A stretch of DNA of 47,067 nucleotides from Candidatus Gastranaerophilales bacterium (GTDB lineage Bacteria > Cyanobacteriota > Vampirovibrionia > Gastranaerophilales > Gastranaerophilaceae): assembly GCA_947626645.1 (NCBI GenBank), contig CANQSZ010000001.1, positions 1 through 47,067 of the forward strand, written 5' to 3'. A model generated the notes under the pieces. It was not told the DNA's origin. It worked only from the letters and a program-made list of their open reading frames with translations, and did no database searches. This document shows, piece after piece, positions 6,406-40,020 of the stretch; the first letter of the stretch is position 1, and each line of letters starts with the position of its first letter. The translations under genes and the position numbers were made by a program.

Positions 6406-7620
6406 ATGTTTGATTTAACGTCTCCAACTGTATATATTCCGACAACATTTATAATTTTGGTTGCAATTTTTGTATCGATACTTCAAAAAGATGCAAAAAA
6501 ACTTGTACACGAAAACACCAAAGACTTGCCGTATTACGGTGAAATTAAGTTGTCTATGAATTACATAAACAACGCCGTTTTAGACGACGGAAGATTTCAA
6601 TACAGAAAGAATGTTTCATCAGACATTACCTACGACAACAACGTATATAATTCCCTAAGACATGCCGGAACATTGTATTCAATGTATATGTATGAAAAAC
6701 TGGGTTTGGAAAATAAATTTCACGAATCAAGAATCAAAGCCTCAAAATACTTTGTACAACGGTACATCAAAAAAATCGGCAGAGGCAAATATGCCGTAAT
6801 TTCAATCCCCGAAGAAGAAGGATTTAACTTTAAGATAGCAAAATCAGGAGCCGCAGGGGTTGCATTGTGTGCTTTATCAAATCTTTATAAAGAAGGTGAA
6901 ATCGAACTTGAAATACTGCAAGGTTTGGGTGAGTTTATACTGTCATTACAAGACAGAGAAGGCAACGTTTACGCATATTACGATATGGAAAATAAAACCA
7001 TAGACAAAGATGCCGAAGCGGTATTTTACCCCGGGGAAGCGGCAGCGGGGCTTTTGTATCTGTATGAAGCAGATCCTCAGCAAAAATGGATTGACGGCGC
7101 TAAAAAAACTCTTTCATACCTTGCAAAAAACAGAAAAAAAATGGACATGGATATACCGTTTGACAATTGGTCTGTTTTAGCGATAGAAAAACTCTTTGCA
7201 CAAAACCTTCTGACCCCCGAAGAAACCAACACCTATAGAGCCTACGCGGAGCAAATGGCAATCCCGATGTTAAGCAACCAAATTACCAATTCCAAAAACA
7301 GCTATTTCGGTGCGTTTAAAGACAATATTCGCCCTTGCAGCTTGGGAACAATTATGGAAGGGCTTTGCTCGATATATTTTTGTACCGACAATAAACAACT
7401 AAGAGAAATAATATTCAAATCGCTTTCCATCGGCTGCATATTTTTAAGCAAAGTACAGGTAAAAACGGGAGAACAAGCAGGCGGTCTGCCAAATTCGGCA
7501 AACTGGGTTAAAGCCGGTGTCACACCGAATGCAAGCGTTATAAGAATTGACAACGTTCAACACGTTGCAACAGGTTGGTTAAAATTCCAAAATATACTTA
7601 AAATTACGGGGAATTACTAA
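6406..7620 (+). CDS. Hypothetical membrane-anchored protein (possible alpha/alpha-toroid fold)
   Basis: The ORF is open from TTG 6346, which sits inside the upstream terminator. ATG 6406 is followed by one TM helix (PTVYIPTTFIILVAIFVSILQ). Repeated helical G/A-rich segments (SGAAGVALCAL, YPGEAAAGLLYLY) recall alpha/alpha-barrel enzymes, but I recognise no family. Confidence 0.55.
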   Translation: MFDLTSPTVYIPTTFIILVAIFVSILQKDAKKLVHENTKDLPYYGEIKLSMNYINNAVLDDGRFQYRKNVSSDITYDNNVYNSLRHAGTLYSMYMYEKLGLENKFHESRIKASKYFVQRYIKKIGRGKYAVISIPEEEGFNFKIAKSGAAGVALCALSNLYKEGEIELEILQGLGEFILSLQDREGNVYAYYDMENKTIDKDAEAVFYPGEAAAGLLYLYEADPQQKWIDGAKKTLSYLAKNRKKMDMDIPFDNWSVLAIEKLFAQNLLTPEETNTYRAYAEQMAIPMLSNQITNSKNSYFGAFKDNIRPCSLGTIMEGLCSIYFCTDNKQLREIIFKSLSIGCIFLSKVQVKTGEQAGGLPNSANWVKAGVTPNASVIRIDNVQHVATGWLKFQNILKITGNY

Positions 7621-36979: not shown

Positions 36980-37411
36980 ATGAAAAGATTACAAAAAACA
37001 ATATCAATAGCTATGTTAATAATAATGACGACAAGCACAATAGCAATGGCGGAGACGAAATTTACACCGTTGGAGTTTGACGATACGCAGACCCTAAATT
37101 CGACATCGACTACCTATGCAACATCACCGGCAGAACCGAAGGGAACCGATTTGTTGGCACCTGCACAGGTAACGGGCGGAACAAAGATGCAGAATGCTAT
37201 TTTGCAGATAGACAATGCACAGGTCGATGTAAGAAACAGATTGTTGCAGTACAATAACGAATATAACGAAGTAAATTCGAGATACAATTCTACGAAAGAA
37301 GAAAGAAAAGCTGCAAAAAGAAAAGTAAAATTGGCGGAAAAGAAGATAAAAAATTTGGAAAAAACGAAAAAACAGATACAGAAGAATTTTCAAAGAAAGA
37401 ATAATATCTAG
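36980..37411 (+). CDS. Secreted coiled-coil hypothetical protein
   Basis: 143 aa with an AAGGAGG RBS. Signal peptide MKRLQKTISIAMLIIMTTSTIAMA. Lys/Glu-rich helical C-terminus. Confidence 0.6.
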   Translation: MKRLQKTISIAMLIIMTTSTIAMAETKFTPLEFDDTQTLNSTSTTYATSPAEPKGTDLLAPAQVTGGTKMQNAILQIDNAQVDVRNRLLQYNNEYNEVNSRYNSTKEERKAAKRKVKLAEKKIKNLEKTKKQIQKNFQRKNNI

Positions 37412-37436
37412 TTGAAGATAAACAAAAACGGGAGAG

Positions 37437-37469
37437 AAGGACTGTTGATTTTTCGACAGTTCTTTTTTT
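37437..37469 (+). terminator. Probable intrinsic terminator
   Basis: Imperfect hairpin AGGACTGTTGA-tttt-TCGACAGTTCT followed by TTTTTTT. Confidence 0.5.
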
Positions 37470-37747
37470 AATAAACGAACTTGATTTTAAAAAATGTTTA
37501 TAGTAGATTAATTCATGCGAAGCCTATGGAAGCGAGCAAATGGCACTCTGCCGAGCGCAAGCGAGCTGAGGGCGGAAGGTCAAGGCGATGAGCCTTGCCT
37601 GAAGACCCGTTTAATGCGAGCGCAGCAAGACCGGAAAACGATTAAGTATCGTTTTCTGAGAGGCCTGATAAGGGTCTTAAATGCTCAAGAGTTGAAAAAA
37701 GAATATAGATGTGAGAGAATGCAAAAGAAAGCATTTTACACGAATAC

Positions 37748-37821
<74 letters not shown>

Positions 37822-37825
37822 TATT

Positions 37826-37883
37826 AAAAAAAAGACTCCGAAAGGGGTCTTTTTTTAATGATTGCAGTAGGACGAGAACCACA
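37826..37883 (+). repeat. Copy 1 of an approximately 57-bp direct repeat (terminator hairpin plus GCAGTAGGAC...GAACCACA tail)
   Basis: AAAAAAAAGACTCCGAAAGGGGTCTTTTTTTAATGATTGCAGTAGGACGAGAACCACA. Contains the tRNA terminator AGACTCC-GAAA-GGGGTCT (37833-37850) plus its T-run. Confidence 0.85.
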
Positions 37884-38023
37884 TTTGTGGTGGGTCGGCG
37901 GATTTGCGGACGGACGGAGCGGAGCGAGTCCGGATAGCGAGTGAATTGAGCCAACTGCGGCGAAGTCCGCAAAGGCGAAACTTCACGAGCACGGAGCAAA
38001 TCCAAGACAGCGCAAGCGAGCAT

Positions 38024-38078
38024 AAAAAAGACTCCGAAAGGGGTCTTTTTTAATATCAGCAGTAGGACAAGAACCACA
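38024..38078 (+). repeat. Copy 2 of the approximately 57-bp direct repeat; its hairpin (38029-38046) also serves as terminator for the minus-strand TA genes
   Basis: AAAAAAGACTCCGAAAGGGGTCTTTTTTAATATCAGCAGTAGGACAAGAACCACA. Roughly 50 of 57 positions are identical to copy 1. Confidence 0.85.
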
Positions 38079-38085
38079 ATATTTA

Positions 38086-38439
38086 CTAAGCTGATTTTAA
38101 TTGTATTTTATAGCCTAAGCCATTTATGAGTTTTAGTGTTGTGCTGATTTTAGGTTGAACTTTACCGTTTAAAATATCTGATAAATTACCTCTATCCATT
38201 TTTAATTCACGTGCAAGAGAAGAAATTGCTCCGCGTCCGCGAGCTTTTACGACATATTGCAGAGAACGAATAAAAGCATCGATGTTACCGTCTTTTGCAA
38301 ATTCTTCCAATGATGTTTCTAAGTAAACCCTTTGATAATCTTTATCTTGTAAATGTTTTTGCATTAAATCATCATGACTGACAGTATCAGACATAACTTT
38401 ATCCATATCTAAATTTAATTTTTCTGAAGAATTTTTCAT
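38086..38439 (-). CDS. HigA-family addiction-module antidote protein (HTH), with no adjacent killer gene
   Basis: 117 aa. YLETSLEEF..DGNIDAFIRSLQYVVKARGRGAISSLARELKMDRGNLSDILNGKVQPKISTTLKLINGLGYKIQL matches the COG3636-type antidote pattern. Confidence 0.7.
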   Translation of the reverse strand: MKNSSEKLNLDMDKVMSDTVSHDDLMQKHLQDKDYQRVYLETSLEEFAKDGNIDAFIRSLQYVVKARGRGAISSLARELKMDRGNLSDILNGKVQPKISTTLKLINGLGYKIQLKSA

Positions 38440-38494
38440 TTTTATATTATTTGTTTTAGGCGTTCATTTTTCGACATAAATATTACCTGATTAT

Positions 38495-38522
38495 ATTGTA
38501 GGGTATAACCGACAAAAGTCAA
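38495..38522 (-). promoter_or_regulatory. Sigma70-like promoter for the higA-like gene
   Basis: Minus strand reads TTGACT (38517-38522), 16-nt spacer, TACAAT (38495-38500). It lies in the 110-nt gap after the hipA stop. Confidence 0.45.
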
Positions 38523-38549
38523 GGTGTTGAATTTTATAATTTCTAAATA

Positions 38550-39788
38550 CTAAAATTCTTTTAATAATTTAGTACAATTCTTTTGCACAACGGATAAAAT
38601 ATCTTTTCCTATGTTATTTTCAAAACTGTTTATAACAATATTTACAATACTTGGAAGAATTTCGCACTGATTTTTTATAACTTTTTTTAGTTGAGTAAAG
38701 CTGATATCATTTTCGTTTGCTAATTTTTCAAAGTGTCTTAATAAAATCTCATTGTGTTTATAATGCCCGCCGATTTTCATAGCCATTTTATTTGACAATT
38801 CAGGATATACTTGAGAACAAAGAATATCGTATGCCGGTGCAAATCTTATTTTAGAGGTGTCATAATGCAGAATAGAAAAATTCTTGCCATGAGCATCATT
38901 ATTTCCGATTAAGTAGTTGAAAATCATTAGTTGAATAAATTGACTAATTGCAACAGCAGGTTGAGATGTCATTCTTAAAATTTCAAAACATCTTTTATAA
39001 TCAACGCCTCCTTCTGCTTGGTATTTGTATGCGCTTGAAATATCGGATGCCTGACAAAAATCTTCCTGATGAATTCTTTTTATTTTGTTATCAATTATTG
39101 TTCTGTCGTATCTTTGAATTAACAAGTATTTTGTTTTATTAGCATACCCGATTTTGAAATCAGGCACATTGATTCCTAACCCTTGAGCTGATTTTAAGCA
39201 TATAAATTCATTTTCAATTGTTTCATTAAATCCGTTTATTGCAGGTTTTAAGATATGACTTGTAGGCACATTATTTTTTGGAAGTCCAATTTGTCCGTTT
39301 ACAACAATTACGGAAGTTTTGTCCTGTGCACCGGCTAAAGATAATCGCATATCTTCAAACCCCGTTGCTAATGGTTTTTGAGGAAGTTCATTTATAAGTT
39401 TTTCAAGTTCGTTTTCCGATAATGGCGTATAATTTATTTGATAAGTTTCTTGCAAGTATTTTGAAGGTGTTTGTTTATCCCCGTTGTCAAAAAATGAAAC
39501 AGCACCTGCGCAATCATAACCTATTGCTTGCAGCATTGAAAAATCATTTTTAGAATTAATTCCGTATTTTTTCCCGATAGCAATTCTTGTATGTTCGCTC
39601 TCGGGTAATAAACCGTTAAAAAACCCTTTGCATTGCCTGTTGTCAAAAGGTTCTTTTTGAATGGGCAAACTTAAAGACAAGATTCTGTCGGTATTGTCAG
39701 AATATTGAAAAATCATGCCGCCATTACCGTCTTTTTCTAATGTTCCGATATATTTATCATTCAAAAATACGTTCAATGAATTACTCAA
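38550..39788 (-). CDS. hipA: HipA-family Ser/Thr kinase toxin
   Basis: 412 aa. HipA N-terminal coupling domain (LNVFLNDKYIGTLEKDGNGGMIFQYS), SLAGAQDKTSV, and the catalytic loop GNNDAHGKNFSIL followed by APAYD. Confidence 0.9.
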   Translation of the reverse strand: MSNSLNVFLNDKYIGTLEKDGNGGMIFQYSDNTDRILSLSLPIQKEPFDNRQCKGFFNGLLPESEHTRIAIGKKYGINSKNDFSMLQAIGYDCAGAVSFFDNGDKQTPSKYLQETYQINYTPLSENELEKLINELPQKPLATGFEDMRLSLAGAQDKTSVIVVNGQIGLPKNNVPTSHILKPAINGFNETIENEFICLKSAQGLGINVPDFKIGYANKTKYLLIQRYDRTIIDNKIKRIHQEDFCQASDISSAYKYQAEGGVDYKRCFEILRMTSQPAVAISQFIQLMIFNYLIGNNDAHGKNFSILHYDTSKIRFAPAYDILCSQVYPELSNKMAMKIGGHYKHNEILLRHFEKLANENDISFTQLKKVIKNQCEILPSIVNIVINSFENNIGKDILSVVQKNCTKLLKEF

Positions 39789-40020
39789 TATCTACCCCAC
39801 TACTTTTATCAAAACCGGACTTCATATCTATTATGATACCTAAAGCGTTGCAAACATCTATAACTTTTCCGATTTGAGCGGTTTTTTTGCCGTTTTCCAA
39901 ATCAACAAGAAACCTTATTCCAACATTAGCTGCAATTGCCAAGTCAGCTTGCGTAAGATGCTGGGCTTTGCGCATTTTTTTTACATAATCTCCTAATTTT
40001 TTAGTATTTGAAATGTTCAT
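39781..40020 (-). CDS. hipB: HipB-like XRE-family antitoxin
   Basis: 79 aa. HTH LTQADLAIAANVGIRFLVDLENGKKTAQIGKV. Its 3' end overlaps the hipA start by 8 nt. Confidence 0.8.
   Translation of the reverse strand: MNISNTKKLGDYVKKMRKAQHLTQADLAIAANVGIRFLVDLENGKKTAQIGKVIDVCNALGIIIDMKSGFDKSSGVDIE

Follow-up and report, generated by a model that had tools for sequence, protein, structure and literature searches.

tRNA genes are classic landing sites of integrative elements, and the scars left beside them are usually treated as random decay. Other short non-coding repeats, such as repetitive extragenic palindromic (REP) sequences and REPINs, enterobacterial repetitive intergenic consensus (ERIC) sequences, Correia elements, Rickettsia palindromic elements and miniature inverted-repeat transposable elements (MITEs), are relatively GC-rich, form hairpins and lie in transcribed intergenic regions, even in RNA genes. 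Folded single strands serve as recombination sites in integron attC and in the attP of CTXphi. The described systems closest to the present case are cis-mobilizable elements (CIMEs), which have been defined together with a model of accretion at tRNA att sites (PMC5704250), and the tycheposons of Prochlorococcus, which occupy tRNA hotspots, are flanked by partial tRNA repeats and push older integrations outward as newer ones arrive (10.1101/2020.12.28.424599). Here we analyze a tRNA-Ile locus in a 47,067-nucleotide stretch (the window) of contig CANQSZ010000001.1 from a Candidatus Gastranaerophilales bacterium (assembly GCA_947626645.1), where a terminator module is repeated around a GC-rich insert. 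We hold, with moderate confidence, that the insert and its brackets are a worn copy of a family of folded insertion units without open reading frames (ORFs) at tRNA genes, inserted by att-type recombination and then rearranged. The family is directed at tRNA genes of gut Melainabacteria (Gastranaerophilales) and is present in the phages of these bacteria as well, and we observe in it a common architecture, homology, a conserved fold specific to one strand, and presence or absence between relatives.

Among known elements, we file the finding with the att-bracketed non-autonomous elements, as a new variant. Like CIMEs, the units carry no integration genes, are bracketed by direct repeats containing the 3′ end of the target tRNA, and occur in tandem arrays with decayed copies at the same site. 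Unlike CIMEs, they measure only ~190–220 nt and hold stereotyped, conserved, structured content rather than random decay products; they lie at ~17 kinds of tRNA, each with an antisense copy of the T-arm, have a mirror-image class 5′ of tRNAs, and come with no partner integrase that we could find. Tycheposons share with them a host of the cyanobacterial lineage, tRNA hotspots and partial tRNA repeats at the flanks, but are kilobase-sized and encode integrases and cargo, whereas the present units are mostly a conserved folded module. The resemblance to REP- and MITE-type elements lies in short length, G+C content above that of the genome, hairpin formation and dispersal; the units differ in their low density and in a sequence strongly conserved across species and phages. 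MITEs are recognized by terminal inverted repeats and a target duplication of 2–10 bp, whereas the units lack any short target duplication and have tRNA-specific flanking repeats of 14–93 nt whose extent is set by the tRNA end. In the literature, a search for published motifs or elements like these returned only general work on att sites and accretion, and the family is apparently undescribed so far.

The window derives from a gut Melainabacterium whose RecJ is at most 77% identical to RecJ of Gastranaerophilales metagenome-assembled genomes (MAGs). By both ARAGORN and the Rfam tRNA model (63.6 bits) its only tRNA is an intact tRNA-Ile(GAT) at 37748..37821, on the + strand like the promoters, units, modules and terminators mapped below; the same sequence is found, 100% identical and at the same position, in at least 30 syntenic loci. 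The terminator module that follows is present twice, at 37826–37883 and 38022–38078, with a spacing of 195 nt. Each copy comprises an A-run, the hairpin GACTCC-GAAA-GGGGTC, a T-run and then GCAGTAGGAC(G/A)AGAACCACA. BLAST within the window aligned 37828–37883 with 38024–38078 at 50 of 56 positions (89%, E = 2e-13), and a gapped global alignment of the copies gave 53/59 identities. The trailer and predicted terminator of copy 1 occupy 37822..37866 (hairpin at 37834–37849, T7, AATGATTGCA) and those of copy 2 occupy 38022..38061 (hairpin at 38030–38045, T6, AATATCAGCA). Both hairpins are predicted by ViennaRNA folding; a simple terminator consensus scan reported none, staying silent at 37834–37856 and 38030–38051 though the hairpin with T7 or T6 seemingly fits its stated rule. 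Between the copies lies the insert, 140 nt at 37884–38023 with 59.3% G+C as against 34.9% for the whole window, and the original prediction of a terminator module duplicated around a GC-rich insert is confirmed.

The last part of each module copy is a hairpin related to the T-arm in antisense. The first, GTAGG-ACGAGAA-CCACA (GTAGGACGAGAACCACA) at 37867..37883, forms the 5′ end of the 3′-side unit and agrees with the reverse-complemented T-arm of tRNA-Ile at 11 of 17 positions. The second, GTAGG-ACAAGAA-CCACA at 38062..38078, borders an antitoxin gene at its 3′ end and represents the stub of a further unit. The same stub adjoins the same antitoxin gene in the sister strains (L002–L004), and comparable stubs occur in loci L132 and L013.

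The identity of the insert is established by a homologue on a metagenome contig, L121. The core of the insert, module B (37898..38010), is identical to the L121 module at 90 of 113 positions (79.6%), and the two share one common fold with six compensatory pairs. This fold comprises P0 (GGAUUUGC/GCAAAUCC), the hairpin CGGAC...GUCCG and the long arm GCGAG-UGAA...UUCA-CGAGC; CAAGACAG at 38003–38010 ends the module on its 3′ side. The fold z-score of the insert is −4.1. The L121 module sits inside a canonical 3′-side unit at a tRNA-Leu(GAG) gene, which runs from the trailer through an antisense T-arm (GGGGAGCAGAACCCC), a second hairpin and CTGGGTTCAAGC to the module, AAGACA, GTCCCCCCGTCGACA and the trailer again, so that its long repeat consists of the tRNA 3′ end, the trailer and the start of the hairpin. 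Position-equivalent to CTGGGTTCAAGC, and to GGTTCGAGC in more than 20 loci, is a relic of the T-stem 5′ strand and T-loop 5′ half in the window at 37889..37899 (GGTGGGTCGGC against GGTGGTTCGAGC).

Further copies of module B were sought widely. Neither the insert nor the terminator module has another BLAST match in the window, the insert has none in 74 RecJ-syntenic loci, and in blastn against phage GenBank records the tRNA was the sole match. An exact 20-mer of the insert gave 0 matches in scanned metagenome and viral contigs, and a gapped module B pattern gave 0 in viral contigs and L121 alone among the fetched loci. A two-anchor pattern (GACGAGAACCACA followed by CAAGACAG) matched once in viral contigs, in a coding region, and this match was rejected as chance.

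The L121 homologue also bears on a neutral account, in which slippage or unequal crossing-over would have copied the 3′ flank of the tRNA in tandem, and unrelated GC-rich filler between the copies would since have drifted. Copies 89% identical and 195 nt apart would suit such an event, as would the fact that no function has been shown. It is contradicted, though, by the presence of the filler's homologue in the same layout at another tRNA gene, and a layout recurring at ~17 kinds of tRNA and a conserved fold with compensatory changes speak against it as well; we regard it as very improbable.

The canonical 3′-side layout begins with an intact tRNA, its trailer or terminator, an antisense copy of its own T-arm with the loop A(C/T)GAGAA, and an optional second hairpin. 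These are followed by the T-stem 5′ strand with TTCGAG (the T-loop 5′ half), a GC-rich module, CAAGAC(A/G), a tRNA repeat extending from the T-loop 3′ half through the tRNA 3′ end, and the trailer. With a GC-rich irregular hairpin, module A, as its core, this layout is found at tRNA-Ile in L013, L009 and L010, at tRNA-Ala in L039, at a prophage end in L099 and in 21 non-redundant metagenome loci, where the tRNAs are those for Glu, Arg (two anticodons), Ser, Met, Asn, Gln, Gly (two anticodons), Val, Asp, Leu, Tyr and Pro; it recurs at ~17 kinds of tRNA in gut metagenomes. In L013, L009 and L010 the GC-rich insert follows the terminator and ends with CAAGACAG and TCCACTGCGGCCCA, the latter being the T-stem 3′ and acceptor 3′ strands of the tRNA, before a second copy of the locus's own terminator. 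The units have no ORF and always lie in tRNA orientation with a terminator after them. They are sporadic: a canonical module A lies within 450 nt downstream of 4 of the 43 tRNAs in 71 Gastranaerophilales loci.

In most of these loci the direct repeat covers the last 17 nt of the tRNA and goes no further, and the flanks beyond the two repeats differ, which is the layout of attL and attR. In homologous units the repeats measure 14–27 nt and end at the tRNA end, while long repeats that include the trailer are found in L132 (72 nt), L157 (93 nt, with two tandem units) and L160 (54 nt). The window repeat spans the trailer and the hairpin without the tRNA part. Across 28 loci, the antisense T-arm copy matches the cognate tRNA at a mean of 10.96 of 17 positions, as against 8.96 ± 1.23 for non-cognate tRNAs, and a match of at least 12/17 is reached in 10 of the 28 loci compared with 1.8% for non-cognate tRNAs (permutation, 0/2000). 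The antisense copy tracks the cognate tRNA.

Where the tRNA repeat (T-loop 3′ half to 3′ end) is expected in the window, 38011–38023 reads CGCAAGCGAGCAT; L121, L013 and the 21 metagenome loci all carry the tRNA 3′ part at the equivalent position. A further module A, truncated after its first 11 nt (CGCAAGCGAGC), takes its place at 38011..38021, and the window unit is therefore degenerate and rearranged. The junction at 38010/38011 is of the same module-to-module type as one in L158. That contig carries two identical copies of module A in direct tandem at 1599–1753, joined between CAAGACAG and CGCGAGCGAGC, with no tRNA in view. The exact 13-mer AGCGCAAGCGAGC, which the original prediction had reported as common to the upstream GC-rich block (37554–37566) and the end of the insert (38009–38021), is real, and it is the 5′ edge of module A; the two blocks are related, as had been proposed.

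The tRNA-derived pieces of the insert are limited to the antisense T-arm copy at 37867–37883 and the relic at 37889–37899. This leaves little room for the proposal that the insert is a decayed 3′ half of tRNA-Ile, and the upstream block a decayed 5′ half, left by recombination. The similarities behind it are a 16/21 match of 37941–37961 to the T-arm and acceptor, an exact 12-mer (CCTGATAAGGGT) common to 37664–37675 and the anticodon loop, and three short colinear stretches in common with the 3′ half of the tRNA, which shuffle tests place at chance level. The best local alignment of the tRNA with the insert scores 11, a value equalled by 139 of 1000 shuffles, and the three 7-mers common to both (0.64 expected) are reached by 60 of 1000. 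CGAGTCC and ACTGCGGC fall in helices or loops whose sequence differs in L121, so that conservation is lacking at the positions that match; this homologue of the insert, moreover, belongs to a tRNA-Leu locus, and neither ARAGORN nor the Rfam tRNA model matches either GC-rich block. We find a tRNA-half origin exceedingly improbable. We also rejected a tandem duplication in which the 195-nt unit contained the tRNA, as the offsets of the tRNA matches are inconsistent and the homologue of the insert lies elsewhere.

The upstream block is instead a defined 5′-side unit within the tRNA leader (37543..37691; fold z-score −3.8), recognizable from its relatives. It consists, in order, of GCACTCTGCCGAG, module A (37550..37636; 76.8 bits with the covariance model R1), the hairpin AAAACGATTAAGTATCGTTTT (37635–37655), CTGAGAGG, the anticodon-loop copy CCTGATAAGGGT and CTTAAATGCTCAAGAG. 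Such units also lie at tRNA-Ile in L029 and L041, and seven or more loci carry them at tRNA-Leu(GAG), some as tandem pairs; the tRNA-Leu occurrences likewise disagree with an origin from the 5′ half of tRNA-Ile. In the general layout the first 11–26 nt of the tRNA are repeated, followed by ACTCTGCCGAG, an optional module A, a hairpin AAAAC...GTTTT and GAGAGG, and a spacer with a promoter-like site then leads to the real tRNA. In the window copy module A is inserted and the 5′ tRNA repeat has been lost. Its spacer holds a promoter-like site at 37692..37720 (TTGAAA, 17 nt, GAGAAT, preceded by TG), identified from a consensus match only; the equivalent spacer of L029 reads TTGAAA-17-TAGTAT. The tRNA promoter itself is read from the sequence at 37481..37509 (−35 TTGATT, 17-nt spacer, −10 TAGATT) and fell below the cut-off of a consensus promoter scan; ~40 nt around it are conserved in all syntenic relatives, and 29 loci have kept the block CTTGATTTTAAAAAATGTTTATAGTACATT upstream of tRNA-Ile.

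Comparison with 70 fetched RecJ-syntenic loci shows that the block upstream of the tRNA is an addition. In the nearest relative, L100 (neighboring protein 87% identical), the promoter is followed by 30 nt and the tRNA with no upstream block, and the 150-nt block in the window is therefore an insertion. Many other relatives are just as plain, with a promoter TTGATT-17 nt-TACATT, a leader of ~30–45 nt, the tRNA, one terminator and the next gene. The presence/absence polymorphism proposed as a check is thus borne out by L100 and many MAGs. The same-species comparison is small because the species is rare, the relatives of the neighboring protein being 100%, 87% and 73% identical and all on short contigs. 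Sister-strain short-read contigs end inside the GC-rich blocks, as expected if these are repeats. The earlier suggestion that recombination or insertion at the tRNA has repeatedly reshaped the locus is supported, and a small non-autonomous element with a bracketing terminator copy is its best description.

Module A is the more widespread of the two modules, and the GC-rich core of L013-type inserts is homologous to the upstream block of the window. Its fold consists of P1 (GCGAGC/GCGAGC with tandem G.A pairs), the helix AGAGGGC/GCCCGUUU, a variable hairpin and a ...CAAGAC tail; in some copies P1 is swapped for GUCGGC/GCCGAC. A first consensus fold was derived from 10 copies, with compensatory changes in 10 of 17 pairs, and the model R1, built here, found 84. 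Among 80 distinct copies, in an alignment that was fitted to the model and is hence biased towards its structure, 95.4% of the cells are paired and 251 are double-change cells, as against 76.3% and 74 in shuffles; none of 500 shuffles reached the covariation, and slid controls were 29–48% paired. Owing to an invariant G.U and to the G.A pairs, only the tRNA-sense strand can adopt this fold. The insert scored only 5 bits with the module A covariance model (37923–38004; E = 0.24 in 800 nt) and by this model is no detectable module A member.

An Rfam search, put forward as a check with the original prediction, linked no family to the insert or the upstream block: at the gathering thresholds of Rfam 15 the tRNA alone was found in the window and 6 relatives, and at E ≤ 10 nothing relevant appeared in 37400–38200 or in L082, L085, L029 and L099. 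Separately, L099, the prophage contig with a 3′-side unit, has a match to the Rfam RT-18 RNA at 7279–7355 (− strand; 46.7 bits, above the gathering score). Hepatitis delta virus-like/theta, hammerhead, twister, pistol and hatchet ribozymes and several riboswitches were compared by eye and rejected, as the order of conserved elements does not fit.

The conserved folds raise the possibility that each unit is a small RNA gene with a tRNA-linked function (processing, stability, decoy or antisense to the T-arm), spread by selection and ended by the second terminator. Strand-specific structure with invariant G.U and tandem G.A pairs, the compensatory changes in module B, the fold z-scores (−4.1 for the insert, −3.8 for the 5′-side unit), the constant tRNA orientation with a terminator after it and the placement of module A directly 5′ of the ribosome-binding sites of unrelated genes would all suit such a gene. 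Against it, a promoter scan made none evident between terminator 1 and the unit, which is preceded by a strong predicted terminator; the units are sporadic (4/43 tRNAs) and lacking in the closest relatives, and the window copy is truncated and rearranged. We consider this explanation rather unlikely, but it is possible that the units have an RNA-level function and are mobile as well.

Module A is sparse, with one copy in the 47-kb window and ~25 among related loci totaling 1.1 Mb; REP and REPIN elements, by comparison, number tens to hundreds per genome and go with a RAYT transposase. When metagenome contigs were scanned for the module A pattern, 92 stretches were recovered in three contexts, of which two are the 3′-side and 5′-side units and the third comprises 5′ untranslated regions (UTRs) and intergenic sites of unrelated genes. 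There it lies directly 5′ of the ribosome-binding sites of rpsP (S16), rplT (L20), a gene for a pyridoxal phosphate (PLP)-dependent enzyme, and phage Mu-F-like, GPO-like and baseplate genes (L182, L153/L104, L130, the L103 group, L114 and L082). Because these are unrelated housekeeping and phage genes, the module is not confined to a single gene family. The variant whose P1 is GUCGGC/GCCGAC is contained in a conserved non-coding block (TAATAGGTTTCTGAGACATTGAGAC...CAGACAGCCGATTTGAGGCTGTTTTTTAGTATTGAGATGTA) ~60–420 nt downstream of tRNA-Ile in L005, L011, L015, L023 and L068; this block is probably the end of another integrative element.

The dispersal of module A suggests a further scheme, in which the modules are palindromic MITE- or REP-like elements carried in single-stranded hairpin form by a transposase of the HUH or another type, with a preference for CGAG in dispensable partial tRNA copies from older integrations, the terminator duplication being older than the module. 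Its junctions follow CGAG in three scaffolds (after TTCGAG, after CCGAG and in 5′ UTRs), its ends pair as a hairpin, modules stand in tandem in L158, and in L176 a module A with a 35-nt spacer lies within the 5′ part of a tRNA-Pro, all of which agrees with such movement, as does its presence in housekeeping and phage intergenic regions. Short target-site duplications are absent, however, the repeats being 14–27 nt or longer and ending at the tRNA end; the density is low, at one copy in 47 kb, a candidate transposase was not found, and both the repeats and the cognate antisense T-arm copy are left unexplained. Hairpin transposition therefore appears quite improbable.

The att-type reading to which we give moderate confidence would account for the locus as follows. 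The 3′-side units would be inserted in the T-loop, and the 5′-side units in the D-arm, by site-specific recombination with a recombinase supplied in trans, each insertion rebuilding a functional tRNA as integrative elements do. Subsequent accretion and deletion would yield arrays like that of the window, in keeping with the accretion model for CIMEs (PMC5704250), and the partial tRNAs of tycheposon islands offer a comparable case. The 57-nt terminator module would be the direct repeat bracketing one 3′-side unit; it would reach through the trailer and antisense hairpin because another unit joined the first in tandem and was truncated afterwards, and the start of a module A would then have taken over the place of the repeated tRNA 3′ part. 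In this clade tRNA-Ile clearly serves as a hotspot of integration: in L014 (7014–8660), L024, L105 and L192 a gene for a large serine recombinase has its last 20 codons on the antisense strand of tRNA-Ile, and this overlap places the att site inside the 3′ end of the gene. A second serine recombinase gene and a gene for a DUF927 protein adjoin it, with a module A between the two genes for recombinases.

Several results weigh against the att-type reading. In tblastn searches, no serine recombinase homologue was found near the mini units, and no recombinase or transposase lies beside any of them. The window copy is without the tRNA 3′ repeat that defines the family, so that its membership rests on homology to L121 and on flanking features, and module B is represented by just these two copies, exact-pattern scans having yielded no more. 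Terminator copy 1 matches the gene-proximal copy of the sister strains at 40/44 positions and window copy 2 at 37/47, which is not predicted by a simple model where the incoming unit brings its own terminator. The occurrence of module A in 5′ UTRs indicates that it can spread or be kept independently of tRNA att sites. Finally, minimum-free-energy folds gave a three-way-junction closing helix in 14 of 26 units with their own tRNA pieces as compared with 44% with swapped pieces, no gain over the control.

In a more elaborate version, by analogy with attC, the CTXphi attP or bridge RNAs, the units would be self-contained, retargetable cassettes with a folded or guide-type attachment site. The antisense T-arm would pair with the split sense T-arm in a junction that mimics the T-arm duplex; sense and antisense target copies on one strand, either RNA or single-stranded DNA, could fold into a target-mimicking duplex with CGAG:CGAG mismatches at its center, and this tandem G.A center would fall exactly at the start of the repeat. 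The cassette would re-template itself on each tRNA that it entered, with modules A and B as a conserved protein-binding or catalytic core. The likeness to attC and CTXphi is one of analogy alone, and we regard retargeting as unlikely.

The genes around the units vary as well. Downstream, the window encodes at 38086–40020 an antitoxin-like helix–turn–helix (HTH) protein (117 aa, PF21716), followed by hipA (412 aa) and a hipB-like HTH gene, whereas in the sister strains (L002 4775–5469, L003 and L004) the PF21716 antitoxin-like gene is paired with a 114-aa gene instead; a toxin–antitoxin cassette swap has occurred right beside the tRNA units. Upstream of tRNA-Ile, 36980–37411 encodes a lysine-rich 143-aa protein with no Pfam match and more than 150 homologues, and a homologous reading frame holds the same place in the syntenic relatives examined. 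In six MAGs (L025, L049, L006, L060, L061 and L011) a full-length tRNA-Ile-like sequence that ARAGORN does not call lies downstream of tRNA-Ile, its D-arm replaced by ACTCTAAGTATTCAGTAYG and with additional hairpins; two of the six, L025 and L049, have a second copy of the terminator after it.

The scars found here are uniform: they are ~200 nt long and ORF-less, have a deeply conserved, covarying fold and a cognate antisense T-arm, and occur on both sides of tRNA genes and in phages of a gut lineage that has been little studied. If the units are mobile, they would be the smallest tRNA-targeting cassettes described and would point to a recombination system not yet identified. If they are RNAs, modules A and B would be new classes of structured RNA, each of ~90–110 nt and absent from Rfam. 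Either way, they provide an annotation rule for GC-rich islands and assembly breaks beside tRNA genes in MAGs of Melainabacteria.

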